Assembly (NCBI RefSeq): GCF_964030875.1
Contig: NZ_OZ034981.1
Location: 90,001-122,000, forward strand
From: Candidatus Saccharimonadota bacterium
GTDB taxonomy: Bacteria > Bacteroidota > Bacteroidia > Flavobacteriales > Blattabacteriaceae
DNA: 32,000 bases
Direction of reading: 5' to 3'
Position 1 is the stretch's first letter, and the number at the start of each line of letters is the position of its first letter. Under the pieces are notes generated by a model, which was given only the letters and a program-made list of their open reading frames with translations, did no database searches and was not told the DNA's origin. Both the position numbers and the translations under genes were made by a program. Below are positions 1-32,000 of the stretch, piece by piece.

Positions 1-905
1 TGTGCTAAACTTTCCTTTTCTTTCCACATTTCTTCTGTAAAGTGCAACTTTACTTCATTGAATATATTCCTGTATTTTTCAATAAGTTGTTTCTTATCAG
101 AAGAATATTTTGAAGCTTTATATGTTTTATCAGAAGTTATCTTCTGAATTTTATCATAAAGTTCTTTATCCTGTACTTCATAAAAATGATCAAATCTTTT
201 AGTACTAAATTTTTCTAGTTTATAGGCTAAACGTATCTGTGCATTTACCTGATCTTTTATAACTTCCTGTGCGAAAGCAATTGCGGATAATATTTCTTTT
301 TCTGATATTTCTTTCATCTCCCCTTCTATCATAATAAGGGCTTCTTTAGAAGCTCCAACAATCATATCGATATCATATTTTAAAATTTCTTCTATATTGG
401 GATGAATAATGAATTTGTTATTACAACGTACAATGCGGACCTCGGAAATAGGTCCATTAAAGGGGATATCCGAAACAGCTAATGCTGATGAAGCTGCTAA
501 TCCTGCTAATCCATCTGGTAAGACTGAGTTATCATAAGAAAGCAGTGAAATCATAATCTGTATTTCAGCATGGAATTTTTTTGTAAAAAAAGGTCTTAAT
601 ACACGATCTACAATACGAGGGATTAAAATTTCTCTATACGTAGGACGCACTTCTCTCTTGAAAAATCCACCAGGAATTTTACCGGTCGCATAATATTTTT
701 CTTTATAGTCTACAGTAAGAAGTAAAAAACCTGTATTTTTCTTTATAGTTTCTTTGGAAGCTACAACAGTAGCTAAAATCATAGTATTTCCCATTTTTAC
801 AACAACGGAACCATCAGACTGTTTAGCTAGAAATCCAGTTTCTATATGAATCCTACGACCGTATGTGATAGATATTTTTTCTGAAATAATACTTGATTTT
901 TTCAT
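1..905 (-). CDS. pnp: polyribonucleotide nucleotidyltransferase (PNPase), N-terminal part; the gene runs off the left edge of the window
   Basis: The minus-strand frame is open from the ATG at 905-903 to the window edge. My translation MKKSSIISEKISITYGRRIHIETGFLAKQSDGSVVVKMGNTMILATVV...YKEKYYATGKIPGGFFKREVRPTYREILIPRIVDRVLRP matches the first RNase-PH-like domain of PNPase. It lies directly downstream of rpsO, the classical arrangement. Confidence 0.9.
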   Translation of the reverse strand, partial: MKKSSIISEKISITYGRRIHIETGFLAKQSDGSVVVKMGNTMILATVVASKETIKKNTGFLLLTVDYKEKYYATGKIPGGFFKREVRPTYREILIPRIVDRVLRPFFTKKFHAEIQIMISLLSYDNSVLPDGLAGLAASSALAVSDIPFNGPISEVRIVRCNNKFIIHPNIEEILKYDIDMIVGASKEALIMIEGEMKEISEKEILSAIAFAQEVIKDQVNAQIRLAYKLEKFSTKRFDHFYEVQDKELYDKIQKITSDKTYKASKYSSDKKQLIEKYRNIFNEVKLHFTEEMWKEKESLA

Positions 906-911
906 ATAAAA

Positions 912-1211
912 TTATTTTCTTAGGTTCAATTCTTTTATTATTATCCTATATCGATTAATATCAAAATTTTTTATGTACTTAAGTAGTTTTCTGCGTTTTC
1001 CTACTAGATTAATGAGAGATTTTTGAGTATGAAAATCTTTTCTATGTTTTTTAAGATGTTCAGTCATATGCTTTATTCTCTGAGTAAGAAGAGCAATTTG
1101 ACCTTCTGAAGAACCCGTATTAGTAACTAATGTACCGAATTTGTCTAAAATTTTTTGGGAAGTGGTTAAAGTGGTTAAAGTGGTTAAAGTGGTTAAAGTG
1201 GTTAAATACAT
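912..1211 (-). CDS. rpsO: 30S ribosomal protein S15 with an N-terminal (LTT)5 repeat insertion
   Basis: 99-aa ORF. ...GSSEGQIALLTQRIKHMTEHLKKHRKDFHTQKSLINLVGKRRKLLKYIKNFDINRYRIIIKELNLRK is a full S15 fold. Codons 3-17 are the 9-bp array. Confidence 0.93.
   Translation of the reverse strand: MYLTTLTTLTTLTTLTTSQKILDKFGTLVTNTGSSEGQIALLTQRIKHMTEHLKKHRKDFHTQKSLINLVGKRRKLLKYIKNFDINRYRIIIKELNLRK
1162..1206. repeat. perfect tandem array, 9 bp x 5 (gtggttaaa), in frame inside rpsO
   Basis: Read directly from the sequence. On the coding strand it is tta-acc-act x5, giving LTT x5. Confidence 0.97.
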
Positions 1212-1222
1212 AATTATATTAT

Positions 1223-1285
1223 ATATAGACTAATATATAGACTAATATGCTAAACTAATATGCTAAACTAGACTAATATGCTATG
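1223..1285. repeat. compound short repeats (atatagactaat x2, then atgctaaactaat about x2, then gactaatatgcta again) in the rpsO/rpmE divergent spacer
   Basis: Read directly. The interleaved 12-13 bp units share actaat and atgcta cores. Confidence 0.8.
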
Positions 1286-1307
1286 GAGCAGTTTTTTTAT
1301 TATATAG

Positions 1308-1340
1308 ATTATGAAATATTATGAAATATTATGAAATATT
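1308..1340. repeat. tandem array, 10 bp x 3.3 (atgaaatatt), each unit containing an ATG, just upstream of rpmE
   Basis: Read directly. ATGs fall at 1311, 1321 and 1331; only 1321 is in frame with the rpmE ATG at 1357. Confidence 0.95.
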
Positions 1341-1356
1341 AAAAAAACATTTTATT

Positions 1357-1617
1357 ATGAAAAAAGGAATTCATCCCAAAAACTATAGATTGGTAGCTTT
1401 TAAAGATATGAGTAGTGAGGAAATATTCCTATGCCGTTCTACAGCTGAAACTAAAGATCAAATAGAAATAGATAATGTAAAATATCCACTAATAAAAATA
1501 GAAATATCTAGTAGTTCACATCCTTTTTTTATTGGTAAAATGAGATTTGTAGATACCGCTGGTAGAGTGGATAAATTTCTAACAAAATACAAGAATTACG
1601 GAAAAACTAATTTTTAA
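1357..1617 (+). CDS. rpmE: 50S ribosomal protein L31 (type B-like)
   Basis: MKKGIHPKNYRLVAFKDMSSEEIFLCRSTAETKD...IEISSSSHPFFIGKMRFVDTAGRVDKF is the L31 signature. I chose the conserved MKKGIHP start rather than the repeat-borne ATG at 1321. Confidence 0.9.
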   Translation: MKKGIHPKNYRLVAFKDMSSEEIFLCRSTAETKDQIEIDNVKYPLIKIEISSSSHPFFIGKMRFVDTAGRVDKFLTKYKNYGKTNF

Positions 1618-1630
1618 AGATTGGAAAAAT

Positions 1631-2653: not shown

Positions 2654-2828
2654 GGATAACACTATGAAAGATTAACATAAGGAAAAAACTTTTGATGGGA
2701 TTAATTAATATGTATCAATTCTTGCTTCCTTATTATATATTACAGAGATCTGACGGTGATTTTAATCACGATAACAACTATTCGCACTCTCCTTAGCAGG
2801 AGTAAGTATTATTCAAAGAAATACGGAG

Positions 2829-2913
2829 GGAGGGTTGCCAGAGTGGTTAATGGAGCAGTTTGCTAAACTGTCGGCGAGAAATCGTCGCGTGGGTTCAAAT
2901 CCCACACTCTCCG
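2829..2913 (+). tRNA. tRNA-Ser (anticodon GCU), type II with a long variable arm
   Basis: Hand-folded. Acceptor ggagggt/actctcc (one G-U), anticodon loop ttGCTaa, variable arm tcggcgagaaatcgtcgc, T-arm gtggg-ttcaaat-cccac. Confidence 0.88.
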
Positions 2914-2927
2914 CGGAGAACGTAGAA

Positions 2928-3088: not shown

Positions 3089-3103
3089 CTACATATTTGA
3101 TGA

Positions 3104-3137
3104 GTGTCCACGACTGGATAGTGTCCACGACTGGATT
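3104..3137. repeat. 17-bp tandem duplication (gtgtccacgactggata / gtgtccacgactggatt) covering the 3' acceptor strand and part of the T-arm of tRNA-Leu
   Basis: Read directly. Copy 2 (3121-3137) belongs to the tRNA; copy 1 (3104-3120) lies in its 3' trailer. Confidence 0.95.
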
Positions 3138-3205
3138 CGAACCAGCACATTCTTTCGAATACCACTCCCTCAAAGTAGCGTGTCTACCAATTCCACCACA
3201 TGGAC
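3122..3205 (-). tRNA. tRNA-Leu (anticodon GAG), type II
   Basis: The reverse complement folds as follows: acceptor gtccatg/cgtggac, D-arm tggtggaattggtagacac, anticodon stem ctact/agtgg with loop ttGAGgg, variable arm tattcgaaagaatg, T-arm gctggttcgaatccagt. Confidence 0.88.
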
Positions 3206-4082: not shown

Positions 4083-5135
4083 ATGATCTGTATTCTAATT
4101 TTTTCGTCACTTTATCAAAAAGCTGTCCGAAATATCTGGTAAGCAGCTATACCAATTTATAGCTTTTGGGTAAAAATTACTCATAGACCAAAATGGTGTG
4201 CCCATAATTGGTGGAATGATGTATCCAATTATGTTGGTAGATTTCGTTTGTTGTTTCGATAAAAACAAAATTTAATAACTTTTATATAAATTCTAATAAA
4301 GAATTCATCATAGTAGAAAAACGTCCGTAAACAGTACTTTCATAATTTTTGTTTGCAATAGTATTTTCTTCTTTTGTGCATACTTATCTTATTCAGACCG
4401 ACTTCGTTTATGGAACGAACTTTAATGATAGGGTACTGTATTTTTGTAAGTCAACTTCATTATGGGTTCCGAATTCCTATTCCCCCTAAAGGATTACCCT
4501 TTATACAATTCCCGTAATGGGAATCCGATCAGATATAAATAACCTACGACTTCCTTATATTAGGTTACCAGCCATCACTCCTATTAGGAATAGGAGATCT
4601 TGTAGTATTTAATTTTCCATCCGATGATACAAACGCAACAGATAGAAAAGATCATTACATTAAACGTTGCGTGGCTATTTCTGGAGAAACATTGGAAAGA
4701 GAAACATTGGAAATTCAAGCTCGGAAAGTGAATGGGTAAAAAAATTCTTCAAAAGAATATGCTTATATCGTGCAAACCAAAGATAAGCCTCTCAATGAGA
4801 ATTTTAGAATTTTTGAAATTACAGATATACAATTTATAGAAAATCGTAATAATTCCGATATAAAAAATTGACAACGTCAAAAAATATTTATTCCCAAGAA
4901 GACTAAAAGAATTATATATTTTTATGTACCTAAAAAAGGAGATGTGATACAAAAAAAAATATCATCACAAATTATGAAGGGCATAAAACATCTTTTTTAG
5001 ATATGGAAAAATAGTAACTCACTACAATATAGAGAAGAATTATTATTTTATGATGGGAGATAATCGTAATAATTCATTTGATTACCGATATTGGGGTTTT
5101 TAAATGGTCCCGTGTTAAGACTCTTTATAAGTTTC
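4083..5135 (+). pseudogene. lepB: signal peptidase I pseudogene (in-frame stops and truncations)
   Basis: The frame starting at 4392 reads FRPTSFMERTLMIGYCIFVSQLHYGFRIPIPPKGLPFIQFP*WESDQI*...GDLVVFNFPSDDTNATDRKDHYIKRCVAISGETLE...VNG*. Later comes YYFMMGDNRNNSFDYRYWGF* (5038-5103). These are the S-box, KR-box and GDN/SxDSR boxes of LepB, broken by several stops. The gene sits downstream of dapB, as in Flavobacteriia. Confidence 0.85.
4685..4714. repeat. 15-bp tandem duplication (agaaacattggaaag/t) inside the lepB pseudogene
   Basis: Read directly. It encodes ETLER-ETLEI. Confidence 0.9.
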
Positions 5136-5634: not shown

Positions 5635-5771
5635 TGGAACACGTAATTAACTTAACCGTATAAGCAGTTTACGCAAGAAAGGGTTTCGTTTTCTACTCCA
5701 CGTTCTGAGATCTTTTCCAGGACGAAATTATAACGTCCTTTGCGAACTACATAGATATTATATTCTGCGGG

Positions 5772-5903
5772 AGCGGTTGCGGTAGCGGTTGCGGTAGCGG
5801 TTGCGGTAGCGGTTGCGGTAGCGGTTGCGGTAGCGGTTGCGGTAGCGGTTGCGGTAGCGGTTGCGGTAGCGGTTGCGGTAGCGGTTGCGGTAGCGGTTGC
5901 GGT
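5772..5903. repeat. perfect tandem array, 12 bp x 11 (gcggttgcggta, itself two GCGGTW hexamers)
   Basis: Read directly. It drives the artefactual (RNRY)n ORF 5758..5994. Confidence 0.97.
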
Positions 5904-6117
5904 AATCCAGGTTCAGTATGATGCTAAACATAGCGTTGGCCAATACGCTTCCCTCTTTCCCGTCAGCATTTATGAGTTCATTCGCACCAATCATAATGGG
6001 GTTTTACGTGCATCTATCACCTGTACCTTGATATTGTCACGAACCACTACTATTTTTTTATAATGAATTCTCGAGAATAAGTAATCTTTTCTTTAATAAG
6101 CAATCTTTAATAAGCAC

Positions 6118-6213
6118 ACTACTGTATTAACTACTGTATTCACTACTGTATTAACTACTGTATTCACTACTGTATTAACTACTGTATTAACTACTGTATT
6201 AACTACTGTATTA
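6118..6213. repeat. tandem array, 12 bp x 8 (actactgtatta, with units 2 and 4 ending in c), ending 21 bp before the rsmH ATG
   Basis: Read directly. The a/c alternation in units 1-4 gives a 24-bp higher-order period. Confidence 0.95.
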
Positions 6214-6234: not shown

Positions 6235-7140
6235 ATGACACTAAACTATCATACACCAATACTTATCAATCAAATTTTAGATTACCTTATTATCGATCCA
6301 AAAGGTACTTATATAGACGCCACATTTGGTGGAGGAGGACATAGCAGAGCTTTGTTAAAACTACTTGAAAAACAAGGAAAAATACTAGCTTTCGACCAAG
6401 ATGAAGAAGCTATTCAAAATAACATTGTTCAAGATCATCGGCTCGAGCTTTTTCATCAAAATTTTCTCCATATTGAAAATCTTTTACGTTTCAAGGGGAT
6501 TTCTAAAGTCTCTGGAATTTTAGCTGATTTAGGGGTGTCTTCTCATCAGTTAGATACCGCAGAACGAGGATTTTCTATGCGTTTTGATCATGATATAGAT
6601 ATGCGAATGAATAAAAAAGCTAAACAATCTGCTAAAACTATCATCAATACTTATTCAGAAGAAAAATTATACAGGATTTTTTCAGAATTTGGAGAATTGA
6701 AAAACTCTAGAAAATTGGCTAAAGCAATTGTTGTTAAAAACCGGGAAAAGCCGATAGAAACGACTTTTGAATTGATCAAAAGTATTGAAAATGAATTTGA
6801 TTATAAAAAAATCAAGTTTTTAGCACGAGTATTCCAAGCATTAAGAATGGAAGTCAACGGAGAAATAAAGGCGTTAAAACAATTGTTAATTAGTATACGA
6901 AGGATACTTAAAAAAGGTGGACACGTTGCTATTATATCTTATCATTCATTAGAAGATAGATTAGTGAAACAATTCTTTAAGAACGGAAGGTTTGATCAAA
7001 CCCCTGAAGAAGACTTTTATGGAAAAAAATTCCGACCTTTTCTGGTATTATCAAATAAACCTATTTTTCCTTCAGAGGAAGAAATTCGTAAAAATCCACG
7101 TGCGAAAAGTGCTCGTCTAAGAGTTGCGGAAAAAATATAG
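6235..7140 (+). CDS. rsmH: 16S rRNA (cytosine1402-N4)-methyltransferase
   Basis: HTPILINQILDYL...YIDATFGGGGHSRALL...ILADLGVSSHQLD...RGFSMRFD...ISYHSLEDRLVK...NPRAKSARLRVAEK are canonical MraW/RsmH motifs. Confidence 0.95.
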   Translation: MTLNYHTPILINQILDYLIIDPKGTYIDATFGGGGHSRALLKLLEKQGKILAFDQDEEAIQNNIVQDHRLELFHQNFLHIENLLRFKGISKVSGILADLGVSSHQLDTAERGFSMRFDHDIDMRMNKKAKQSAKTIINTYSEEKLYRIFSEFGELKNSRKLAKAIVVKNREKPIETTFELIKSIENEFDYKKIKFLARVFQALRMEVNGEIKALKQLLISIRRILKKGGHVAIISYHSLEDRLVKQFFKNGRFDQTPEEDFYGKKFRPFLVLSNKPIFPSEEEIRKNPRAKSARLRVAEKI

Positions 7141-7263: not shown

Positions 7264-8460
7264 TTATGATAACATACGGCGAATACGAGCAAAAGCTTCC
7301 TTAAGATTTTCTTCAGAAGAAGCATAGGAAATTCTTATACAATTTTCATCTCCAAAAGGTCCTCCTCCAACAGTAGCCACATGAGCATGATTTAGTAGAT
7401 ACATAGCTAAGTCATCAGAATTAGAAATTCTTACACCAGAAAAAGTTTTTCCAAAAAGATCTGAAACATCTGGAAAAATATAAAATGCTCCCTGTGGAAT
7501 ATTGGAATGAAACCCGGGAATATTAGATATTTCTTCCAAAACCATATCCCTACGTTTTTTAAACGTATTAATCATATAACTAATTTTTTCATAAGAGGCT
7601 TTTAAAGCGCTAATAGCTGCTTTTTGTGCAATAGAATTGGCTCCTGAAGTAGTCTGTCCCTGAATTTTCTCACAAATTTGAGCCAGCCATTCTGGTGCCC
7701 CAATATATCCAATTCTCCAACCTGTCATAGCAAATGCCTTGGAAAGTCCGTTTACAGTAACTGTTTGTTCGTATACTTCTGGAAATTCTGCAATGCTAGT
7801 GTAAGTATCTAAATAATTAATATGTTCATATATTTCATCCGAAATTATCATAAGTTGTGGATGCTTGGCGAAAACCTCAGAAAGATACTTTAATTCTTTA
7901 CGAGAATATATACTTCCTGAAGGATTACATGGTGAGCTAAAAATAAATATTTTTGACCGAGATGTAATAGCATTTTCTAGACTTTCAGGGGAAATTTTAA
8001 AATCAGTTTGTAAAGTTGTGGGAATGATCACCTGTCTAGCCTCACATAAACTAGCCATTTCATAATAGCTAACCCAATAAGGAGCAGGAATAATTATTTC
8101 GTCTCCTGGATTAATAAGTGCTAAAAAAATATTAATCAGCGATTGTTTTCCTCCAGTAGATATTACTATCTGAGATGGCTTGTAATTCAGTCTATTATCT
8201 CTTAAAAATTTTTTACACACTTCTTCTCTCAACTCTAAATAACCAGATACAGGAGTATAATAATGATGTCCATCATCGATGGCTTTTTTCGCTGCTCCTA
8301 AGACAAAATCAGGAGGAGAAAAATTAGGTTCACCTACGCTCAAGTTAATTACATCATGTCCTTGTGCTGTAAGATTTCTAGCTCTTGCAGACATGGCGAG
8401 AGTTTGAGAGTATCTCAGATTTTTCAATCTATTGGAAATACTTTGCATTCTTTCCGTCAT
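7264..8460 (-). CDS. PLP-dependent aminotransferase, class I (aspartate aminotransferase-like)
   Basis: 398 aa. INLSVGEPNF..., ...SSPCNPSGSIY..., ...VNGLSKAFAMTGWRIGY (PLP lysine box), ...IRISYASS. Confidence 0.9.
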   Translation of the reverse strand: MTERMQSISNRLKNLRYSQTLAMSARARNLTAQGHDVINLSVGEPNFSPPDFVLGAAKKAIDDGHHYYTPVSGYLELREEVCKKFLRDNRLNYKPSQIVISTGGKQSLINIFLALINPGDEIIIPAPYWVSYYEMASLCEARQVIIPTTLQTDFKISPESLENAITSRSKIFIFSSPCNPSGSIYSRKELKYLSEVFAKHPQLMIISDEIYEHINYLDTYTSIAEFPEVYEQTVTVNGLSKAFAMTGWRIGYIGAPEWLAQICEKIQGQTTSGANSIAQKAAISALKASYEKISYMINTFKKRRDMVLEEISNIPGFHSNIPQGAFYIFPDVSDLFGKTFSGVRISNSDDLAMYLLNHAHVATVGGGPFGDENCIRISYASSEENLKEAFARIRRMLS

Positions 8461-11077: not shown

Positions 11078-11084
11078 TTTATAA

Positions 11085-11650
11085 ATGTTAAGCTTCTTTT
11101 TTTTGAAGAAGGAAAGATTTTACTGGTAGATCAACCTAATTTTAGGTGGTGAAAAGAATTCGTTGGAAGATCTGCAGATTTGTCAATATTAAAAAAATCA
11201 AAGTCGTACATGCTGGAACTCTCGATCCAAAAGCTACTGGACTATTGATAGGATGTACAGGAAAAGCTACTAAGGAAACAGAAAAAGACTATAAAATTTA
11301 CAGTGGGACCCTAAAACTTGGGGCTACTACTCCTTGTTACGATTATGAAATGTAAGAAGATAAAATATTCCCCATTGATCATATACAAATTTATGAAACC
11401 GCTAAAAAATAATGCAACAACCACCAATTTTTTCAGCCCTTCAACAAGAAGGAAAACGTCTTTATAAAATGGCAAGAAAAGGAATTAAGATCGAAACAAC
11501 GTTAAGAGAAGTATAAGTAGAAATTTGAGGGTCCATTGTGGAAAAGGTCCGTATATTAGTTCACAATTTTGTAGATTCACCGCAGGGCCTAACAAATCAA
11601 TGGGTATACAATAAACGACGTAGATACAACCTATTGGCCTTAAATTGACC
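11085..11650 (+). pseudogene. truB: tRNA pseudouridine(55) synthase pseudogene (frameshifts and stops)
   Basis: Fragments lie in different frames. FEEGKILLVDQPNFRW* follows a T8 run at 11097-11104. Then VHAGTLDPKATGLLIGCTGKATKETEKDYKIYSGTLKLGATTPCYDYEM* (catalytic GTLDP box), QPPIFSALQQEGKRLYKMARKGIKIETTLREV*, and CGKGPYISS. Confidence 0.87.
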
Positions 11651-11832
11651 TATACTATGAACATCTGTACACGTAATCGGTGATATATTGCAATGGAATA
11701 TAAATTCGTTAAGTTTTCACTATTCCCATTATCTGGAAATCTCACTCGCAATACCTCTATAAATAGTATATTAGATATGTTTTTCCTGAACTTAATTGAA
11801 TTATCCAATCTCACCATGCCTCCGAAGAATTT

Positions 11833-13063: not shown

Positions 13064-13350
13064 GATATATACGAAATTCTTGAATCGCTTCTACAGTAAC
13101 CTCATAACGCACTTGCTTTATTTGTTAGGGGAACGGTAATCAGAAGTATACTCTCGTAAATAAACGACTTTTAAAATTATAACACTGGCAGCTGAAGATT
13201 TTCAGGCCTATAACAGACTGTGTTGAAGTAAACATTTCGTTTTATAAAGAAAGTTTTTTAGCTCCTTAAAACGGATTAGTTTACCTACTGGGCTATAAAA
13301 TTATTTCGCTCATAAGTTCTAGCGGATATTTTTTTGTAGTCCCTGAACGA

Positions 13351-13380
13351 AGCATATCTAAGCATATCTAAGCATATCTA
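13351..13380. repeat. perfect tandem array, 10 bp x 3 (agcatatcta)
   Basis: Read directly. Confidence 0.95.
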
Positions 13381-13545
13381 CAACCTTAATTAAACCTAGA
13401 TCCGGTTGGCCACATCCACAGTACAGTCATCACTATAGAGAATGTCGTCAGAATCGTACACGTTGTAAACTATTCAGATATTTATTGGCTACTCGCTGTA
13501 TATCTTCGCACCGAATAGAACGGTAATGATTATCAGTAGATTGCG

Positions 13546-13649
13546 CAATTACAGCGAGCAATTACAGCGAGCAATTACAGCGAGCAATTACAGCGAGCAA
13601 TTACAGCGAGCAATTACAGCGAGCAATTACAGCGAGCAATTACAGCGAC
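13546..13649. repeat. perfect tandem array, 13 bp x 8 (caattacagcgag)
   Basis: Read directly. It drives the artefactual ORF 13526..13708 (39-bp translational period AITASNYSEQLQR). Confidence 0.97.
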
Positions 13650-13927: not shown

Positions 13928-14395
13928 ATGAAATATTCAAAAAAGAAAATCCGTTTATTCCTTAGCATTGGGATATTTTTTTCTATCGTGTTTCAACCGA
14001 TTAGAGCACAAACGTACATCAACCGATTAGAGCACAAACGTACATCAACCGATTAGAGCACAAACGTACATCAACCGATTAGAGCACAAACGTACATCAA
14101 CGTAAATGTTGAAAAAGGCGCTAGTCTTTTTAAGACTAATTGTACTTCTTGTCATTCTACCGATATGACTAAAAAACTTATAGGCCCAGCGCTGTATGGC
14201 GTCACTAACAAGAGAAATAGTGAATGGATCAAGAATAATAAAGATTTAATAAAAAGCGGAGATAAAGACGCTATTTCGATCTATAAAGAATATGGGAAGA
14301 TAGACATGAACCCTTTTCCTCAGCTTTATGACACAGATATAATCCTCCTTAAAAAACTTCTGAAATACAACCATAAGATCCTAGTGAAACCTTGA
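13928..14395 (+). pseudogene. class I c-type cytochrome (signal peptide plus one CxxCH domain) interrupted by a stop codon created by a 26-bp x 4 array
   Basis: The ATG at 13928 gives MKYSKKKIRLFLSIGIFFSIVFQPIRAQTY. The array then reads INRLEHKRTSTD-TAG (14054-14056). The same frame resumes as ...INVNVEKGASLFKTNCTSCHSTDMTKKLIGPALYGVTNKRNSEWIKNNKDLIKSGDKDAISIYKEYGKIDMNPFP. The tracked ORF 14165..14395 starts after the heme motif. Confidence 0.82.
13994..14102. repeat. perfect tandem array, 26 bp x 4 plus a 5-nt partial copy (caaccgattagagcacaaacgtacat)
   Basis: Read directly. Units are 13994-14019, 14020-14045, 14046-14071 and 14072-14097. Confidence 0.97.
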
Positions 14396-15062: not shown

Positions 15063-17250
15063 ATGGGAAACACTACACGGAGAGAATTTCTAAAATGGAT
15101 GGTATTTGGAATAGCTTCTGCTACATTAGCTAGTTGCACTGTTATCCTATCTATTCCATATTACACCAGGAATACCAGTATACTATGCTTCAACTATGTT
15201 TGATGGCTTCGATGGCAAAATACTGAATCTCTTCATAACGTATCGTCTCGTGTACAGGCTTCTTTACTTCTATTAGATGATAACGAACGGTTAAAAGGAC
15301 CTTCAATTAAAAGACAGTCTGGATCATGGAATATGTTATTTCACAACTAAAAAAAATTACTTTCTTTTACCAGTCCATCTACGAAAAAGTATATCCAACA
15401 GCACGTTGGATTACTTCTGATGCATATTCTTCAGAAATACTAGGTATCCCACACTCCGATAATTAATTGTTTCCTTTGATGCAGATTTTTTAGGTAGTCC
15501 AGAGAGCTTAGCAAAAAAAAACCCGGTGCTAATAATACAACTGGAAAGCCTAACAGGTGCTCAAGTACATCATCTGTTATATATAAGACTATGCAAGGTG
15601 ATTCTAACCATTATCTAGCACAAAAAATTAAAGGTTCGAAAGCAGTAGTTTTTGCTGACGGCAGTAAAGAGGCTTAGCTCTTTTAATCAATAAAAAAATT
15701 AGTAGCCATGCTCTAAACCTTTTCTTACTTGCGAAAGAAAGTAATGATTTATTATAGATCTTGAAAAAGGAGACATTTTAATAAATAATGCTAATCCTTT
15801 ATATACAAAAAAATTAAAAACTTACCGGATAATTTTCTCCCAAAGAGGATGAAACTTACGATATGATGAAGGTATGGGCACCTACGAACCATTGGTTGTA
15901 AAGCTGGGTGAACCTATTACAGGGATCTCATGCAGCCTGTTATACAACCATTACAAGATTCTTTACTAATATGGAGATGGAGTTGGAGTAATCTAAGATA
16001 TAAGCAAGAAAAATACATATCATAGCAGTAATCTGACCTATTCTGAAAAAATATTTGACCAGTGTTTCATCATTTAATGAAGCCTTTTTTCGTGGCTGCG
16101 TCTAAAACTAAAAAAAAGAAGGTTTTGAACTATATACTACAACGGCCTTAGGAGATGGAACTCAGTCCAATAATCCTTGGAGCTTCCTGATCCCATTACC
16201 CGTACTACTTGGTACACACTTTGGAAAAAACTGGTGATTCGTAATTGGCTCAGAGGAAATGGAGCAATGGATGGAGATTGTGTTTATCTAACAATGGGAA
16301 ATATTACATTTAAAAATGTTCCTGTTTATATACAACCTGTACAAGCGTTGGGTTCCATAGGATACTAAAGGAAAAGTATCCTGTCAATCAGTAGGAATAA
16401 ATGCTTACTATCTGGATGAGAATTTTAAGATTCTACAAAAAGGAATTAAATCTTCAATCAATTTTCTTGTGCGCAGTTACAACACACTATGGTCGGAAGA
16501 AATTCCATTGCTAGAGAAACCAAAAAAAAAAGAAAGAAGAGAAAATAAAAATTTATAAGGGAGATATTCCATTATATAAAATCACACTTTGGAAAGATAG
16601 ATCTCAAGGTCATCATTTCCATCTTTCTATAGATTTATGCATAGGATGTGGATCATTGCATGTCATGCAGAAAACAATGTACCAGTGGTAGGTAAAGTCT
16701 CGTGATATGCATTGGTTACGTATAGATCGTTATTATTCTACTGAAGAAAGTTTCGTCAGTCTGGCCAAAAAGGGACTTTCACAAAAAAATATGTTTTCGT
16801 AGCCAGAAATGTCCAATATAATCCTAAGGTTATTTTTCAACCTGTTATGTGTCAGCATTGTAACAATGCACCTTGCGAAACAGTTTGTACGGGAGCAGCG
16901 ACTTAACATGGACAAAACATGATGGCCTACAACCGGGGCGTTGGCACGCGTTATTGCGCTAACAATTGTCCTTACAAAGTTCGTAGGTTCAACTATGCTG
17001 AAAATTATATAGGGAGATATGCTGAAAATTATATAGGGAGATATGCTGAAAATTATATAGGGAGATATGCTGAAAATTATATAGGGAGAATGGCGCTTAA
17101 TCCAGATGTAGTAGTACGAAGTAGAGGAGTAATGTTCTCTTTGTATTCATCTTACACAGGCTCCCAGAGCCAAAAATATAAAGGATGGTGAATTCCATAC
17201 ATTGTGCACTAAAGCCTGTCCTAAGGAGCTTTAAGTTTTGGTGGTTGGGC
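15063..17250 (+). pseudogene. actB: alternative complex III-like molybdopterin-family / 4Fe-4S subunit (ActB-like) pseudogene
   Basis: Tat-like N-terminus MGNTTRREFLKWMVFGIASATLASC. Ferredoxin boxes IDLCIGCGS..., [77 protein letters not shown]. There are many stops and frameshifts, and the locus is shorter than an intact homologue. Confidence 0.85.
16995..17090. repeat. perfect tandem array, 24 bp x 4 (atgctgaaaattatatagggagat), in frame inside the actB pseudogene
   Basis: Read directly. It encodes YAENYIGR x4 in ORF 16919..17191. Confidence 0.97.
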
Positions 17251-18385: not shown

Positions 18386-18512
18386 CGAGACAAATTATTA
18401 CATTTGCAATAGGCAAGTGCTAAGTGCTGTGCAACTAGCTATCTTTAAATAAACGAAGCAAAGGGAAGTAGCAGTGTGATACAGATTACTTGTATCTATC
18501 GTAGCTGTATAA

Positions 18513-18564
18513 CTTCGTTAAAGGTACCAACGAGCCGTTCTTCGTTAAAGGTACCAACGAGCCG
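18513..18564. repeat. 25-bp segment (cttcgttaaaggtaccaacgagccg) duplicated with a 27-bp period
   Basis: Read directly. Copies are at 18513-18537 and 18540-18564. Confidence 0.9.
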
Positions 18565-18843
18565 GAGATTATCGTAGATTCTACGTAATACAGCAGTGTA
18601 GGTGCCCCCACTAAAATATTTAAGTGACGTGATAGTCACGGTAATCTACTAATGCTGGGTTCTATTACTTTAAGCAGGATGTTACACTTCGTGATGAAAT
18701 TGTACAGCATCGTAAGCCAACCGACCTAAATATGTGCGTTGCATACCGTAACAAATGTTATGATGGTACTACGGATAAAATTAAACCTTTCGGGAACAAT
18801 ATCAGGATATACTCCTAATGCGTATAGCACGCTGACAAAATAT

Positions 18844-18877
18844 AAAACCCGTCCCGTTGGATAACGATTCGGGTTTT
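18844..18877 (-). terminator. candidate factor-independent terminator downstream of groEL
   Basis: Inverted repeat aaaacccg (18844-18851) / cgggtttt (18870-18877), A/T-flanked on both sides, 21 nt past the groEL stop. The 18-nt loop is long, so confidence is modest. Confidence 0.4.
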
Positions 18878-18897
18878 TAATTGTATTGATGTTTTAA

Positions 18898-20882: not shown

Positions 20883-21098
20883 TCAAAGACAACAAGAGTT
20901 AAATGTCAGTATTAAAATAAATAATACGATTGATAGAATCCAAGTAGTTTTTTCTAAAAAATCATTCGGACGGCGTATACCGAACATTTGTGTGCTCTTG
21001 GGGGTTAAAATTTTAGAACTTTTAGGATTTTGAATCAGAATTATGATCAACAGTAAAAAAGATATAATACTAATAAGTATAGTTAAAAATATATACAC
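20883..21098 (-). CDS. secG: preprotein translocase subunit SecG (short form), GTG start lying inside a tandem array
   Basis: Two hydrophobic helices flank LIQNPKSS...[14 protein letters not shown], as in SecG. It occupies the secG position upstream of groES. No ATG is available, and the GTG at 21098-21096 is the only plausible start. Confidence 0.75.
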
Positions 21099-21144
21099 GT
21101 CGTTACACGTCGTTACACGTCGTTACACGTCGTTACACGTCGTT
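21095..21144. repeat. perfect tandem array, 10 bp x 5 (acacgtcgtt), filling the spacer between the sigma-54 activator stop and the secG start
   Basis: Read directly. Confidence 0.97.
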
Positions 21145-21151
21145 AGTTTCA

Positions 21152-24801: not shown

Positions 24802-24907
24802 ACCATCTATATAATCGGTGGTAAATACCATCTATATAATCGGTGGTAAATACCATCTATATAATCGGTGGTAAATACCATCTATATAATCGGTGGTAAA
24901 TACCATT
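24802..24907. repeat. perfect tandem array, 25 bp x 4 plus a 6-nt partial copy (accatctatataatcggtggtaaat), inside sucA
   Basis: Read directly. The unit is the coding sequence for ..FTTDYIDG.. Confidence 0.97.
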
Positions 24908-24983
24908 TGATTATTGACTACTATATGTATCGTTCCTCCTGTTTTATAACCTTCTAGTTGAGACATTTCATAAATAAGACCTT

Positions 24984-25079
24984 GTCCAGAAATAGCAGCA
25001 TCTCCATGTCCAGAAATAGCAGCATCTCCATGTCCAGAAATAGCAGCATCTCCATGTCCAGAAATAGCAGCATCTCCAT
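24984..25079. repeat. perfect tandem array, 24 bp x 4 (gtccagaaatagcagcatctccat), inside sucA
   Basis: Read directly. On the coding strand it repeats HGDAAISG, the GDAA(F)xGQG region of E1o. Confidence 0.97.
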
Positions 25080-25540
25080 GTCTAAGAATGGGTAACAGAT
25101 GGTTAGAATTTTTCTTATAGTAATGATCTATCTTAAACCTTCTACCACAGTATCTACAGTTTCAAGATGCGAAGGTGCAAGACTTATCCCATGACGGTTA
25201 TTTCGTTTTATCGTAGCTACGAAATGATATTTGACGTCTACAGAAAAAACTTATATTCTTTTCCATAGAATTCGCAATATACAGTCTTAAGATGACCCGC
25301 CGTTATATTAGCAAGTGTACAAGGTTCCTTTCCGACAAGTTTTCCAGCTTCAAAAACCGTTTCAAGATCTTCTATACCAAGTACAAATTGTTCAATATCT
25401 AAATTAGGAGAATATTCACGCCTACTCCTAATTGGATTAGTTTTCGTAAAAATATGCCCACGACTACGATAGGCTTGTATAAAATTTCATCCCTGGAATT
25501 CCTTCATCATTTTTTTAGAATCCTTGTTATCATTTCTATT

Positions 25541-25656
25541 GTAGGTAGGCAAAAACCTTGAAAAAAAGTGTAGGTAGGCAAAAACCTTGAAAAAAAGTGT
25601 AGGTAGGCAAAAACCTTGAAAAAAAGTGTAGGTAGGCAAAAACCTTGAAAAAAAGC
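25541..25656. repeat. tandem array, 29 bp x 4 (gtaggtaggcaaaaaccttgaaaaaaagt), inside the sucA N-terminal region
   Basis: Read directly. All three frames of the unit are open on the coding strand, and FFQGFCLPT recurs after 87 bp in ORF 25507..25758. Confidence 0.97.
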
Positions 25657-25785
25657 ACGCCAACTTGGCTCAATCTGGTCTGGAGTATGAAGATATCTAT
25701 GATAGAGCTCTTCAATGAGTTTTGGATGAACGGTATTCAGAAAAGAATAACGATCCATGATAAATAAGTATAAAATGTAACATTT

Positions 25786-29498: not shown

Positions 29499-29626
29499 TT
29501 TTAAGATTTTAACGCTTCTGCACTTACCACAATTTCTTTAGTAATAGCATACTGACGTTCTTTATTATTAACTAACTTTTATTTCTGTGGCTTTATGCAT
29601 AGCCATAAGACGTGATTAAATAAAGA

Positions 29627-29663
29627 GCTTAGGCTCCATAAAGTAGCTTAGCTCCATAAAGTA
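29627..29663. repeat. imperfect tandem duplication, 19/18 bp (gcttag(g)ctccataaagta)
   Basis: Read directly. The copies differ by a 1-nt indel. Confidence 0.85.
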
Positions 29664-29692
29664 AAAGTAATTAACTTTTTCATCATTACTAG

Positions 29693-29713
29693 ACTTTATA
29701 CTTTATACTTTAT
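29693..29713. repeat. tandem array, 7 bp x 3 (actttat)
   Basis: Read directly. Confidence 0.85.
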
Positions 29714-30108
29714 AGAGATAGGTAAATGAACCTTTAAGAATTTTTCTAGAAATAGATCGCTATAGTCTCCATAACTAGGAAATTTTATTTGTGCAGATAC
29801 TACGACAGAAATACCTTCATTAATTGCTGGTCGGCCACAGTAATAGAGATAATATTAGTTGGAATAGATCCGTCTCCCTAATAGGTAGAGCTGAACCTAC
29901 CAATACTTAACGTTCATATTACGGGCTACTTCAGCATCTTGGATTATTTGAGCAGAACGTTACGAGAAAAGACATAAAGACATCTACGGGATAAGCTTCT
30001 ATAAATTTCACGTCTGGGGCTTGCCTAGTAGCGAGGAGCGAGGCGTTAGCTGCTACTACTACCGTGCACCATACATTACTTATGGGTGATCAGAACATTC
30101 AATAGTAT

Positions 30109-30148
30109 CTATGGCGCTCTATGGCGCTCTATGGCGCTCTATGGCGCT
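30109..30148. repeat. perfect tandem array, 10 bp x 4 (ctatggcgct)
   Basis: Read directly. Confidence 0.97.
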
Positions 30149-30201
30149 GGTAATACCATTACCCCAGCATCCCTTCTACTACCTGTAGTAGATGTCCGCT
30201 A

Positions 30202-30297
30202 CGTTGCACTTTGCGTTGCACTTTGCGTTGCACTTTGCGTTGCACTTTGCGTTGCACTTTGCGTTGCACTTTGCGTTGCACTTTGCGTTGCACTTTG
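30202..30297. repeat. perfect tandem array, 12 bp x 8 (cgttgcactttg)
   Basis: Read directly. It drives the artefactual (VALC)8 and (SATQ)8 ORFs 30086..30385 and 30199..30435. Confidence 0.97.
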
Positions 30298-30579
30298 TAC
30301 CACACCAACATGGTCAATCCCTTTAAGACCAGTGACCAGGATGAAATTCACCGTATCTAGTCCTGAGCTACTCCAAATTATGTAATATAATTCTTTATGG
30401 CTGCTGTCATAGATTTGACCATTCTTTATGCTCAATCAACCCTAGTAGTATCTTTCCATTACTTCCTTTATTTTTCAATGGTATAGCCGTGATGATAGTG
30501 GCTTCGACCCACTTTAAAATTGGAAGACCGATTTTTTTAAATTAATAGAAAGCATTTCATCAGATGCCTTATCAAGCTC

Positions 30580-30960
30580 TGTGTTATTACTACCCCGAGA
30601 AATCATTTATTATTTTTCTTGGCATGCATTGTATTTGAGTTCTTCTTTAAGAAGTTTTTCAGCAATGTTAATAGACAAATCAACTATATATGAGACTTTT
30701 CGCCTGTGCTTGTTCTTCACGGGTTTTATCACTCATTATACGAGCTTATTAATATCTCGTTCAATACGACTTTCTTTAATCCAATTATCTTTTAAAAGAC
30801 GAATTTCTTCACGGACTTTTTGAGCAGCTTCTAGAGAATTATGCAAATGAGTATCACGTTTGAGTATCACGTTGTTCAATCATATTTAATATGGGTGTTT
30901 CCACGCAAATTTTGTCAGAATGAAAAACAAAAGTAAAAAGAGAACACTTTGCCAAAAAAT
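30580..30960 (-). pseudogene. atpF: ATP synthase Fo subunit b pseudogene
   Basis: The minus-strand translation FWQSVLFLLLFFILTKFAWKHPY*..LNN..RDTHLHNSLEAAQKVREEIRLLKDNWIKESRIERDINKL** has the FW-x-hydrophobic-KFAWKP membrane anchor followed by a charged helix. It is interrupted by stops and a 13-bp duplication. Confidence 0.7.
30848..30873. repeat. 13-bp tandem duplication (tgagtatcacgtt x2) inside atpF
   Basis: Read directly. Confidence 0.9.
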
Positions 30961-31175
30961 AAAACCTCGGGAAGGCGTTACTAAATCCACTCGGTAAACC
31001 CTATATAGCTAAAAGGGCAGTGACTATACCGAAAAGTGCAGTAGCTAGGTTGTCTGTAGATCGCCTACAAAACAGATAGCCCTAGCGTCCATACCAATAA
31101 ATAAGGAAGAGAGCGCTGTAAATCTGAATGCTTCAGACACCAGCACTTCGAGTAATAGCACTTCGAGTAATGACG
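30961..31175 (-). pseudogene. atpE: ATP synthase Fo subunit c remnant
   Basis: Minus-strand fragments lie in two frames: AIYRQPS (compare the conserved ARQPE loop) and LATALFGIVTALLAI* (helix-2 end). A 15-bp duplication sits at the N-terminal side. Confidence 0.55.
31142..31171. repeat. 15-bp tandem duplication (agcacttcgagtaat x2)
   Basis: Read directly. Confidence 0.92.
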
Positions 31176-31179
31176 GAAA

Positions 31180-31920
31180 TCAGGCAAACCCTGCAGCAAA
31201 TATACTTTTAAAAATGAATCTGACGCAAATAAAGCTCAATATAATAAGATGACCCGCCGGAGCAAATAAACGAATGCAAAGTGTCATTGGTCTTATAAAG
31301 ATTCCTACAAGTTCTATTGGGATGAGTAAAAAACGAACAAATATCGTAGGCAGATGGAAAATCTGTTTACAATAAGATCTTTTGGAGGTTATAATCAACG
31401 ATAAAACTAAGGTGGTATTAATATTCCCAGTTACATTCGGAATTCGTAGCCGATGGCAGCATCCCAATAAGATTGGTTATAAAAAAAATACAACTTATAC
31501 ATCGCCTATGTTTTGAATAGCTAATTCATCTCTTAGGAACAAAATTAGTGGTTATAACAATTTAGCCTGTAAAGAAATAGGACAATAATCTTTGTCAGAA
31601 TTTGCCATGTTTAAAAACATCCCACAAAGAATAAAAACAGAACATAAAGTAGCCACAACATTTTTCGTAATGGAGAGATTCAACGGTTGCTGATTTAGGT
31701 CCTGAGGTGGTCAAGGACCCATAAGCGTCGGTTTTATTGCACAAGACGATAATATTTTCCTTAATCTTCTACAATCTTTCTTCCATATTTAAACCGAAAA
31801 AACATGCCAGCCTTTATACCACAAAATTATAGGAATACTTAGACTTTTCTCTCCACTACCCCAAAAGTGCCATTCAGATGAATCTCGTATGTGTTCAAGA
31901 ATAACTTCAGCAGGATTCAT
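31180..31920 (-). pseudogene. atpB: ATP synthase Fo subunit a pseudogene
   Basis: N-terminus from the ATG at 31920: MNPAEVILEHIRDSSEWHFWGSGEKSLSIPIILWYKGWHVFSV*. ORF 31180..31467 reads ...NVTGNINTTLVLSLI...IELVGIFIRPMTLCIRLFAPAGHLIILSF, where the conserved RLFGN-x-x-AGH box is altered. Stops and deletions lie between the two pieces. Confidence 0.8.
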
Positions 31921-32000
31921 AATTCTTTCTCTATAAGAAACTACAAAACTATTCAGCACAAAAAATCATGAGTTATTGGACAAGTAGAACCATCCTCATT

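Follow-up and report, generated by a model that had tools for sequence, protein, structure and literature searches.

Why does this symbiont genome carry so many short tandem arrays, and are they products of evolution or of sequence assembly? The window, a stretch of 32,000 nucleotides, is from Candidatus Walczuchella monophlebidarum (ICPU), symbiont of the cottony cushion scale Icerya purchasi, and an initial annotation had counted at least 23 tandem arrays in it. Tandem Repeats Finder (TRF; score threshold at least 50, overlapping rows merged) recovers 22 arrays totalling 1,451 bp (22-23 by counting), including every array listed earlier, with starts within 1-7 nt (for example, 1160 rather than 1162 and 29620 rather than 29627), and adds one at 6090-6116. 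The observation of dense tandem arrays is confirmed. Fifty dinucleotide-preserving shuffles give an expectation of 0.34 arrays at this score, with a maximum of 2, and 1.5 Mb of loci from free-living Flavobacteriales contain 2.2 arrays per 32 kb by TRF. The density in the window is about 10-fold higher than in these relatives, and about 60-fold higher if only perfect arrays are counted (14 of 103 in the free-living control).

A separate I. purchasi assembly, CP170564.1, has no substitutions relative to the window outside the arrays across 32 kb. Exact equality is found for 20 of the 23 arrays. The other three differ in copy number, and one of these has a variant unit in addition. Orthologous loci were also compared in four to six other Walczuchella lineages, at divergences of 0.7-3.6% (trpS plus alaS). 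The arrays are given below with the state of the corresponding sites; each was located by TRF and confirmed as an exact run unless TRF alone is named. Eight lie near rpsO, rpmE, tRNA-Leu, lepB and rsmH:

1160-1206: 9 bp x5.2 (AAGTGGTTA), perfect, in frame within intact rpsO (912-1211, minus strand); single copy in CRGE.
1221-1270: compound imperfect 12/13-bp array (TRF alone, 89-90% matches), divergent rpsO-rpmE spacer; nearly the same form in CRGE.
1308-1341: 10 bp x3.4 (ATTATGAAAT), perfect, a short distance upstream of the rpmE start (1357).
3103-3136: 17 bp x2.0, duplicating the 3'-terminal 16 nt of tRNA-Leu(GAG) (3121-3205, minus strand) plus one trailer nucleotide; single copy in CRMU and CRGE.
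4684-4713: 15 bp x2.0, lepB (signal peptidase S26) pseudogene, of which the fragment at 4539-4736 matches Pfam Peptidase_S26; single copy in CRMU and CRGE.
5766-5904: 12 bp x11.6 (TGCGGTAGCGGT), tRNA-Met to rsmH spacer, the longest array of the window, with a 133-nt exact run; about one copy in CRMU, none counted in CRGE, where the locus is about 132 bp shorter.
6090-6116: 14 bp x1.9 (TRF alone), same spacer; degenerate duplicate also in CRMU.
6118-6213: 12 bp x8 (ACTACTGTATTA/C; TRF alone), same spacer; two copies in CRMU, one in CRGE.

The array in rpsO encodes (LTT)5, residues 3-17 of S15, and is an in-frame (LTT)4 insertion N-terminal to the Pfam S15 domain, which begins at residue 19, downstream of the repeat insert; S15 has 99 aa in the window and 79-89 aa in the other Walczuchella lineages listed. 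Copy number at the rpmE-proximal array is variable, since the 3.4 copies of the window correspond to 9.4 at the same site in CRGE. The array at 1221-1270 is an older array and that at 6090-6116 an older duplication. The units at 6118 follow the order A,C,A,C,A,A,A,A in their last base, which suggests a two-unit (24-nt) duplication step. The first unit at 5766 is a G variant; CP170564.1 has one unit fewer at this site and carries the G-variant unit twice rather than once.

Six arrays lie in the cytochrome c, complex III-like, groEL and secG regions:

13350-13380: 10 bp x3.1 (AAGCATATCT), eroded DNA between sufT and the cytochrome c remnant; 4.1 copies in CP170564.1 (41 nt versus 31 nt here), one in CRMU.
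13545-13648: 13 bp x8.0 (GCAATTACAGCGA), perfect, same eroded DNA; about one diverged copy in CRMU, whose own 9 bp x4.4 array is a few tens of bp away.
13993-14101: 26 bp x4.2, perfect, 5' end of the cytochrome c pseudogene fragment (Pfam Cytochrom_C, 14057-14392), closed by the 5-nt microhomology TCAAC; single copy in CRMU, with TCAAC present.
16994-17089: 24 bp x4.0, perfect, Fe-S subunit remnant of an alternative complex III-like region (weak Fer4_11 match just upstream), encoding (YAENYIGR)4; partial single copy at most in CRMU.
18513-18564: 27 bp x1.9, groEL to tRNA-Ala spacer.
21094-21145: 10 bp x5.2 (TACACGTCGT), between the sigma-54 activator stop and the secG start, overlapping the secG GTG start codon by 5 nt, with the GTG inside the last unit; single copy in CRGE (NCBI and Logan assemblies), CRMU, ICSE, LLAX and the ENA contig.

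Three lineages have independent amplifications at the site between groEL and tRNA-Ala: next to it, CRMU carries a 10 bp x3.4 array, and DRPI has TTTAACGAAG in about 20 assembled copies (13.9 + 5.6) with an internal run of Ns (assembly gap).

The last nine lie in the sucA, trpS and ATP synthase regions:

24802-24906: 25 bp x4.2, perfect, FTTDYIDG region of the sucA pseudogene (tblastn, Pfam E1_dh), with a 5-nt microhomology; CRGE, CRMU, LLAX (whose sucA is intact) and the ENA contig each have one copy; in ICSE, whose locus is 80 bp shorter, no close copy was counted.
24983-25082: 24 bp x4.2, perfect, sucA pseudogene, encoding (HGDAAISG)4; ICSE, LLAX and the ENA contig each have one copy, which in CRGE and CRMU has been deleted or has diverged.
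25540-25655: 29 bp x4.0, perfect, N-terminal sucA remnant (Pfam 2-oxogl_dehyd_N, 25510-25785); single copy in ICSE, all other lineages about 80-90 bp shorter.
29620-29663: 18 bp x2.4, imperfect (1-nt indel; TRF alone), upstream of trpS; CRGE has its own 28 bp x4.8 array including related sequence.
29693-29714: 7 bp x3.1 (ACTTTAT); two copies in ICSE and CRGE, four in CRMU.
30108-30148: 10 bp x4.1 (TCTATGGCGC, 60% GC), heavily eroded DNA separating trpS from the atpF remnant; one copy each in CRGE, CRMU and ICSE.
30202-30297: 12 bp x8.0 (CGTTGCACTTTG), perfect, same eroded DNA; 7 copies in CP170564.1 (84 nt versus 96 nt here), single copy in CRGE, CRMU and ICSE.
30848-30873: 13 bp x2.0, atpF pseudogene (tblastn match, 30616-30990); single copy in CRGE, CRMU, ICSE and LLAX.
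31142-31171: 15 bp x2.0, atpB pseudogene (Pfam ATP-synt_A and tblastn, 31075-31932); CRMU likewise has two copies, CRGE and ICSE one each.

The eroded DNA between trpS and the atpF remnant presumably represents the remains of an ATP synthase operon. The initial identification of sucA, of cytochrome c and of a flavobacterial endosymbiont was correct (the genes by Pfam and tblastn).

Copies within an array had been described as identical apart from a few exceptions, and base-by-base checking agrees: periodicity is perfect in 18 arrays, and the deviations are those at 1221-1270, 6118-6213 and 29620-29663 and in the first unit at 5766. As had also been claimed, no unit is common to two arrays beyond chance 8-mers, and a search for dispersed unit copies returned only matches at a near-chance level, involving units that are AT-rich or among the shortest. 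The proposed GC-richness of the units is true of a few (0.50-0.67 GC), but not as a general property (mean unit GC 0.38 versus 0.34 in the non-coding background, P = 0.07).

Amplification in situ, proposed from the window itself, is supported by the related endosymbionts: nearly every unit is single copy at the orthologous sites of CRGE, CRMU, ICSE, LLAX and the ENA contig. A mobile repeat family was considered and rejected, as the units are mutually unrelated and almost all have one copy at orthologous sites. The arrays of the sister lineages occupy other sites, which are single copy in ICPU; those of the window are therefore young, lineage-specific local amplifications. The imperfect arrays at 1221-1270, 6118 and 29620 are among those wholly or partly common to sister lineages, so that the age of an array matches the identity of its copies. 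Taken as a whole, the arrays are very probably real, non-random and evolutionarily young tandem duplications. The inference of an active process also holds, as three arrays, and no other sites, distinguish the two I. purchasi assemblies, and the array at 1308 differs from that of CRGE; the genome, previously called static, is rather slow in substitutions. Over an orthologous locus of about 21 kb there are 12 arrays in ICPU, 10 in ICSE, 9 in CRMU, 4 in CRGE, 3 in DRPI and 1 in LLAX. L097, a compact relative without neutral DNA, has almost no arrays, and therefore an unusually high duplication rate is not separable from an ordinary rate acting on unusually abundant neutral DNA; the data fit either.

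Location within the window is strongly biased. Pseudogenes and spacers make up 42% of the window and hold 22 of the 23 arrays (P = 7e-8), which occupy 10.5% of that DNA, at a density of 1.6 per kb versus 0.05 per kb in the remainder. The array in rpsO is, as first noted, the only one wholly inside an intact coding sequence, and it is in frame; those at 21094 and 3103 also touch functional elements. The earlier proposal that purifying selection keeps arrays out of working genes is supported by this pattern. The same bias could arise if the tandem duplications themselves inactivated genes. The sole lesion of miaB in ICSE is a perfect 245-bp x2 duplication, and the full frame returns when one copy is removed; the majority of units are also not multiples of three. 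In this window, however, sucA, sucB, lepB, atpB, atpF and cytochrome c have been inactivated in sister lineages too, where the unit is single copy and the genes carry many other deletions. The arrays here therefore arose after inactivation of their host genes, and gene death by duplication is an improbable account of their location.

On another reading, short-read de Bruijn assemblers created or mis-sized the arrays, and the loci would truly be single copy or of another length. For CP170564.1, Illumina reads were assembled by SPAdes with Pilon polishing, and the authors of that assembly mention that coverage is uneven over repeats; the longest array (5766) differs between the two I. purchasi assemblies. 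The DRPI array (CP170567.1) has an N gap, so the copies counted in short-read assemblies may be minimum values; a Logan contig built at k=31 collapses this array to 33 nt. Against this, the two separate assemblies agree on 20 of 23 arrays, the CP170564.1 libraries were PCR-free, all arrays save one are at most 116 bp and so under the 150-nt read length, and the differences of 31 versus 41 nt and 96 versus 84 nt are far below it. A collapsed repeat would be about k long and not single copy; the single-copy states of the sister lineages are therefore real. The artefact reading is largely refuted and has only the slightest probability. Hardly more credible is that the repeats are functional (phase-variable contingency loci, iterons, promoter spacers or a repeat protein under selection). 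Three arrays adjoin gene starts (rpmE, secG and trpS), one alters S15, and the rpmE-proximal array varies in copy number between lineages, but most arrays lie within dead genes, neither location nor unit is conserved, non-multiple-of-three units are common, and nearly all arrays are missing from sister lineages at less than 1% divergence.

The borders of the arrays and the lengths of their units bear on how the arrays form. Border microhomology averages 1.44 nt versus 0.79 nt by chance (P = 0.01) and reaches 4-5 nt in four arrays (P = 0.001), while half of the arrays have 0-1 nt, below the prediction of classical slippage between direct repeats. Unit lengths among 58 arrays from four lineages form two bands (6-18 and 24-29 bp); no unit measures 19-23 or 30-34 bp. 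Across two pseudogene regions, lineage-specific insertions amount to 270-598 bp per lineage, 31-97% of this within tandem arrays, and deletions to 64-1,059 bp; by this rough estimate, duplications are the main DNA gain in a genome otherwise shrinking by deletion.

RecA-independent replication misalignment filtered by purifying selection is the most likely explanation. A local single-copy piece of 7-29 bp is duplicated head to tail, with short or absent microhomology (0-5 nt). The array then grows or shrinks by one or several units per step, as seen in the 6118 pattern and the G-variant units at 5766, and this outpaces point substitution, so the copies remain identical. Selection would purge arrays from working genes, leaving them to pile up in the unusually large neutral pool of pseudogenes and spacers and to survive at functional sites only where harmless: N-terminal to the S15 domain without a frameshift, within 5' leaders or as a tRNA trailer. 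The likely enzymatic cause is slipped-strand mispairing, possibly with re-annealing of an unprocessed lagging-strand flap. Mismatch repair, whose loss had earlier been named as one example of a cause, is not expected to act on loops of 9-29 nt, so its loss is unlikely to be a sufficient cause. Walczuchella genomes have been reported to lack mutL, dnaB and dnaG, with mutS in only three of seven; all seven are without dnaB and dnaG in the literature, yet array density varies. For LLAX, the published list of replication genes consists of gyrase and the subunits of Pol III only, and the genome is reported to have no recombination genes.

A more specific possibility, though a doubtful one, is that arrays are born, not by polymerase slippage, but when unprocessed lagging-strand 5' flaps are ligated back in, the signature of a missing flap nuclease (Rad27/FEN1, or the 5' nuclease of bacterial Pol I), with slippage expanding them later. 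According to one report, Rad27 guards against both sequence duplications and repeat expansions (PMC4608483). Also in favour are the short or absent border microhomology, the lack of Pol I in the LLAX gene set as listed, and unit-length bands that resemble a step size rather than free slippage. Those bands, however, come from only 58 arrays, and the symbiont would have to mature its lagging strands without a ligase or primase of its own.

Replication misalignment under a selection filter, as preferred here, concerns a feature that neither of the two Walczuchella genome papers mentions, and repeat accumulation in Walczuchella is apparently unreported. The closest precedent for these arrays is the similar build-up of repeats in Portiera of Bemisia tabaci.

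All of the tandem arrays claimed in the initial annotation, at least 23 in 32 kb, were recovered by TRF, which also found one extra array at 6090-6116. After merging, 22 arrays with a TRF score of at least 50 cover 1,451 bp of the window, while 50 dinucleotide-preserving shuffles gave a mean of 0.34 such arrays and a maximum of 2. Weak TRF matches (score 30-49) number about 13 in the window against 9.4 expected from the shuffles, so the excess is limited to strong arrays. Copies stand head-to-tail with no spacers between them, according to both TRF and exact periodic runs, and 18 of the window arrays are periodic to the base. The external control, 80 loci (1.5 Mb) of free-living Flavobacteriales, came from a contig scan with miaB as the query, only free-living Flavobacteriales being among the matches listed; it has 2.2 arrays per 32 kb, and 14 of its 103 arrays are perfect. 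The claim of dense tandem arrays is thus confirmed overall and its interpretation supported, while GC-rich units as a general property are not supported (P = 0.07). A preference for unit lengths divisible by three was also considered and rejected (11/23, not significant by our own arithmetic). In the window, copy number is 4 for every one of the five 24-29-bp arrays and exactly 8 for three of the 12-13-bp arrays.

The window carries pnp, rpsO, rpmE, tsaD, dapB, rbfA, rsmH, an aminotransferase gene, rsmG, gyrB, rpsP, sufT, sufE, groEL/ES, secG, a sigma-54 activator gene, miaB, alaS, trpS, and nine tRNAs. Its proteins are encoded on CP170564.1 (288,943 bp), which is "Walczuchella ICPU" of Icerya purchasi (Choi et al. 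2025); the 2025 Walczuchella paper gives the ICPU genome as 289 kb with a coding density of 81%. The two sequences align over the full length of the window with zero substitutions outside arrays, and copy number is unequal at three arrays, so the window was assembled separately from the same symbiont. The I. purchasi symbiont has been assembled at least twice more, as OZ464853 and under PRJEB75090. Orthologous loci were taken from CP170565.1 (CRGE; also Logan contigs of SRR29856496), CP170566.1 (CRMU), CP170563.1 (ICSE), CP006873.1 (LLAX), CP170567.1 (DRPI), and one ENA metagenome contig. Substitution in Walczuchella is very slow, at 0.7-3.6% between host genera; divergence from the window over trpS and alaS is 0.67% for CRMU, 0.78% for CRGE, 1.5% for ICSE, and 3.6% for LLAX. 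The loci compared are collinear throughout, and complete synteny has been reported for seven Walczuchella genomes (2025 paper). In DRPI, from Drosicha, the 1.2-kb interval between trpS and miaB lacks alaS, sucA, and sucB (locus L095, 10978-12159), while a 68-aa alaS fragment is still present there in a Logan contig of a related sample. An intact class I/II aminotransferase gene (Pfam Aminotran_1_2, 376 aa) lies at 7264-8394 on the minus strand of the window; the 2014 LLAX paper counts aspC among the genes absent from Walczuchella. Tandem repeats are not mentioned in the 2014 and 2025 Walczuchella genome papers, the latter remarking only on uneven coverage at "repetitive sequences", and the one paper that a literature search found with both terms is unrelated.

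For almost every array, relatives hold one copy of the unit at the same place. Every comparable sister lineage has a single copy or no extra copy at 19 of the 23 arrays, while four are common to at least one sister lineage. The sucA arrays are single copy also in the two sources that retain an intact sucA, LLAX and the ENA contig. The imperfect array at 1221-1270 is also found in CRGE, the array starting at 1308 has 3.4 copies in the window and 9.4 in CRGE, the 6118 array with its variant units has two copies in CRMU, and the 31142 array also occurs in CRMU. All imperfect arrays are thus among the older, shared ones, and those specific to one lineage are perfect. The reciprocal comparison gave the same pattern, arrays of CRGE, CRMU, and ICSE, like two ICPU arrays located beyond the window, being single copy in the other lineages. 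The arrays do not behave as dispersed mobile repeats (REP, MITE, or IS remnants): beyond chance 8-mers, no unit is common to two arrays, and dispersed copies are limited to matches, close to chance, of the shortest or AT-rich units. Since no two arrays have a common unit and the single-copy states are reciprocal, a mobile or dispersed repeat family is excluded; a CRISPR array is also excluded, as the copies are contiguous without unique spacers and Rfam detects tRNAs only. The proposal of in situ amplification holds on the orthologous single copies, the reciprocal pattern, and the unrelated units.

Copy number has changed between the two assemblies of the same symbiont. Relative to CP170564.1, the window has one more 12-bp unit and one fewer G-variant unit at the 5766 array, three rather than four 10-bp units at 13350, and eight rather than seven 12-bp units at 30202. 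These differences in copy number or unit variants are the sole ones in 32 kb, so that two isolates of one host species are distinguished by copy-number change alone; with zero substitutions outside arrays, they bear out the suggestion of an active process. Among the sister lineages, one array has 2.3 copies in CRMU and 7.4 in ICSE. Judging by the arrangement of variant units within the 6118 and 5766 arrays, copy number can change by more than one unit at a time.

It is unlikely that the arrays are assembly artefacts. Although one array of the DRPI genome is interrupted by an N gap, and copy numbers of the longest arrays may be lower bounds, 20 of the 23 arrays agree between the two separate assemblies and the CP170564.1 libraries were PCR-free. 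De Bruijn collapse shortens a long array to roughly k (33 nt in a Logan contig built with k = 31), which is not the single copy seen in relatives. The differences at 13350 and 30202 are real because these arrays are 31-96 bp, well under read length. The lengths at 5766 (127 nt in CP170564.1 and 139 nt in the window) suggested collapse to an assembler k-mer length, but exact periodicity spans 109 and 133 nt, respectively, and the G-variant unit counts are unequal; this array is not a simple collapse, although its assembled length may differ from the true one. The window array lengths of 22-52 and 96-133 bp suggested a technical ceiling near 100 bp, but arrays of other lineages have intermediate and greater lengths (up to 164 bp, plus one 490-bp duplication), and the split is probably a small-sample coincidence. 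In CRMU (CP170566.1), whole arrays are duplicated nearby (6320-6595 and 11397-11628 of locus L085, and 15563-15838 of locus L088), with 88-bp arrays recurring at a distance of 188 bp at two loci and a 66-bp array at a distance of 166 bp. Either higher-order duplications are nested here or the assembly is ambiguous. Short-read assemblies of such genomes should be read with the warning that they understate arrays or break at them.

With functional DNA defined as the 21 intact CDS and 9 tRNAs (58% of the window), 22 of the 23 arrays fall within the remaining 42% (binomial P = 7e-8), in agreement with the view that they largely avoid intact coding sequence. Arrays make up 10.5% of the non-functional DNA in the window, at 1.6 per kb as compared to 0.05 per kb in functional DNA. 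The pseudogene hosts are lepB, cytochrome c, sucA, sucB, atpF, atpB, and an Fe-S gene with neighboring respiratory-cluster fragments that are alternative complex III-like; the remaining arrays are in spacers. The truB pseudogene (11078-11832), with TruB_N fragments of 68 and 34 aa annotated in CP170564.1, has no tandem array despite about 750 bp of neutral DNA.

Three functional elements are touched by arrays. In rpsO, a 9-bp unit repeated five times in frame adds (LTT)4 after residue 5, preceding the Pfam S15 domain that begins at residue 19. S15 is 79-89 aa long in the other Walczuchella lineages listed, and no S15 with another LTT copy number was found in the protein collection, which also lacks the 99-aa form. 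The GTG start codon of secG falls in the last unit of the 21094 array. The last 16 nt of tRNA-Leu(GAG), together with one trailer base, are duplicated directly downstream (3103 array; window 3103-3205); in the precursor, the 5' acceptor strand could base-pair with this extra copy. CRGE and CRMU have a single copy. Solely owing to arrays, reading frames of 78-99 aa occur at 5758-5994 (minus strand, repeating RYRN), 25507-25758 (minus strand, FFxxF), and 30086-30385 (plus strand, VALC), and CP170564.1 annotates the first two as protein genes of 74 and 83 aa. Neither of these two is probably a gene as such: the RYRN frame (74-78 aa) has no family match, and the frame at 25507-25758 is the N-terminal remnant of the sucA pseudogene lengthened through the array. 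Some annotated "hypothetical proteins", such as these two, are repeat-encoded reading frames.

The arrays in the window are a consequence of gene death and not its cause, since their hosts are also fragmented in single-copy sisters, with dozens of other deletions. The duplication process can also strike live genes, as in ICSE, where a perfect 245-bp tandem duplication in two copies is the sole lesion of miaB (CP170563.1; 17223-17712 of locus L087) and dropping one copy recovers the full-length reading frame. This duplication is either a very recent inactivation, a within-host variant, or a misassembly. In rough, alignment-based counts over the two pseudogene regions on either side of trpS-alaS, each lineage has 270-598 bp of insertions of its own, 31-97% of it inside tandem arrays, and 64-1,059 bp of lineage-specific deletions. 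By these totals tandem duplication is the main source of DNA gain, supplying most inserted DNA and partly offsetting deletion, which is roughly of the same order. Array density among lineages partly tracks the amount of neutral DNA, and an elevated duplication rate is inseparable from a larger target.

Tandem arrays per orthologous locus of about 21 kb
ICPU: 12
ICSE: 10
CRMU: 9
CRGE: 4
DRPI: 3
LLAX: 1
Unrelated compact flavobacterial symbiont with intact genes: 2 (weak)

Clustering of arrays from different lineages was considered and rejected, as it was seen at 2 of the 11 compared loci, about the chance level, with the spacer between groEL and tRNA-Ala (window 18387-18897) as the sole standout. 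There, three lineages have amplified independently within about 60 bp: ICPU has a 27-bp unit in 1.9 copies, CRMU a 10-bp unit in 3.4 copies, and DRPI the unit TTTAACGAAG in about 20 assembled copies, with the N gap inside the array. The spot is a cumulative GC skew peak and a switch in gene orientation and looks like a replication terminus.

The comparisons show local duplication, frequent changes of copy number, including multi-unit steps, and a pattern of filtering by selection; the events are most likely RecA-independent replication misalignments. Microhomology at array borders is short (mean 1.44 nt as compared to 0.79 nt by chance, P = 0.01), with 4-5 nt at four arrays (P = 0.001). Border microhomology of the lineage-specific deletions averages about 1 nt, so these are not obviously slippage between direct repeats. 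Hairpin-prone progenitor sites were rejected, the folding energy of unit plus flank being equal to that of random non-coding segments (P = 0.66). Units of 9-29 nt are not expected among the loop sizes recognized by MutS, and loss of mismatch repair alone is unlikely as the cause for units of this length. In the literature, Walczuchella is reported to be without mutL, dnaB, and dnaG, and mutS to be kept in only three of seven genomes; for LLAX, the replication genes reported are Pol III subunits and gyrase, with recombination genes absent. The causal link of the arrays to repair loss is putative.

For the first duplication, an origin from flaps is a live alternative to misalignment. Flap-nuclease deficiency causes sequence duplications and repeat expansions (PMC4608483), and unit lengths form two bands in four lineages, one of 6-18 and one of 24-29 bp, lengths of 19-23 and 30-34 bp being absent. 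The bands come from 58 near-perfect arrays in the window and six Walczuchella lineages, the longer band having 16 arrays in four lineages. It is conceivable, though improbable, that duplication-prone replication is a major engine of the "accelerated pseudogenization" of Walczuchella, which has lost its own helicase, primase, and apparently lagging-strand maturation enzymes; replication would then duplicate in steps of about 9-15 and 24-29 nt, faster than substitution, killing genes outright (such as the 245 bp of ICSE miaB) and re-inflating neutral DNA. If so, array density would follow lineage-specific losses such as that of mutS. The three genomes that keep mutS are predicted to be those of LLAX and the two Drosicha symbionts, which are poor in arrays.

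The arrays are a new and well-supported case of a known kind of genome instability, of moderate specialist interest. Ancient nutritional symbionts with genomes below 300 kb are usually seen as structurally frozen, changing solely by slow substitution and deletion, but about one tenth of the neutral DNA in this Walczuchella window consists of repeats younger than the split of sister host species. This gives a concrete mutational process to set against the published puzzle of Walczuchella pseudogene richness. The arrays also offer fast-evolving population markers for Icerya purchasi, a worldwide citrus pest whose symbiont is otherwise invariant across the window.

Several known systems resemble the arrays in part. 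In the contingency (phase-variable) loci of pathogens, repeats at gene starts change spacing or reading frame through copy number. The arrays at the rpmE, secG, and trpS leaders of the window are similar in position and, with rpsO, are the only phase-variable candidates. Unlike such loci, the arrays are not conserved (of these four, all but the rpmE array are absent from sisters) and are not linked to surface or restriction genes, and the majority sit in dead genes. Animal mitochondrial control regions are polyploid, asexual, and repair-poor, and the copy number of their non-coding repeats outpaces base change, but these repeats are limited to one region while Walczuchella arrays are scattered through every neutral stretch. 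Bacterial VNTRs or minisatellites, as used in MLVA typing, are head-to-tail repeats of about 6-100 bp with slippage-driven copy number that varies between close strains. The Walczuchella arrays agree with slippage-type VNTRs in their head-to-tail copies, single-copy orthologous sites, and copy-number variation between close relatives. A typical genome has a handful to a few dozen VNTR loci per megabase, which are often imperfect and often located within genes, whereas the arrays here number about 1.6 per kb of non-coding DNA and are almost all perfect, the genome being 289 kb. Deficiency of the yeast flap nuclease in rad27 has a duplication signature (PMC4608483) with which the arrays have in common tandem duplications of tens of bp, flanking direct repeats that are short or absent, and apparently missing flap-processing genes, although rad27 is an experimental mutator spectrum rather than an evolutionary accumulation.

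Portiera aleyrodidarum of Bemisia tabaci is the closest precedent: its intergenic regions are enlarged, and short tandem repeats have multiplied in them (Sloan and Moran 2013, PMC3673631). This Portiera has a spike of 7-bp units, strain indels in repeats, and no deletion bias, has lost dnaQ, dnaN, dnaX, holA/B, ssb, ruvC, and mutL, and is highly rearranged (PMC3673631). Both are ancient insect endosymbionts with tiny genomes of unusually low coding density, tandem repeats concentrated in non-coding DNA, indels within repeats between close strains, no strong deletion bias, and loss of replication and repair genes (for Walczuchella, per the literature). In contrast to the sharp Portiera spike, units in the window range from 7 to 29 bp, and no unit recurs at a second site; over the 58 arrays units are 6-29 bp, and only four have a 7-bp unit. 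Walczuchella also differs in belonging to the Bacteroidota, in its very slow substitution, in full synteny across lineages as opposed to rearrangement, and in its gene losses, with Pol III subunits reported kept and dnaB and dnaG absent; ruvC, lost in the Bemisia symbiont, adjoins the window. With Walczuchella as a second case, phylogenetically independent of Portiera, one can ask which losses from the replisome destabilize repeats.
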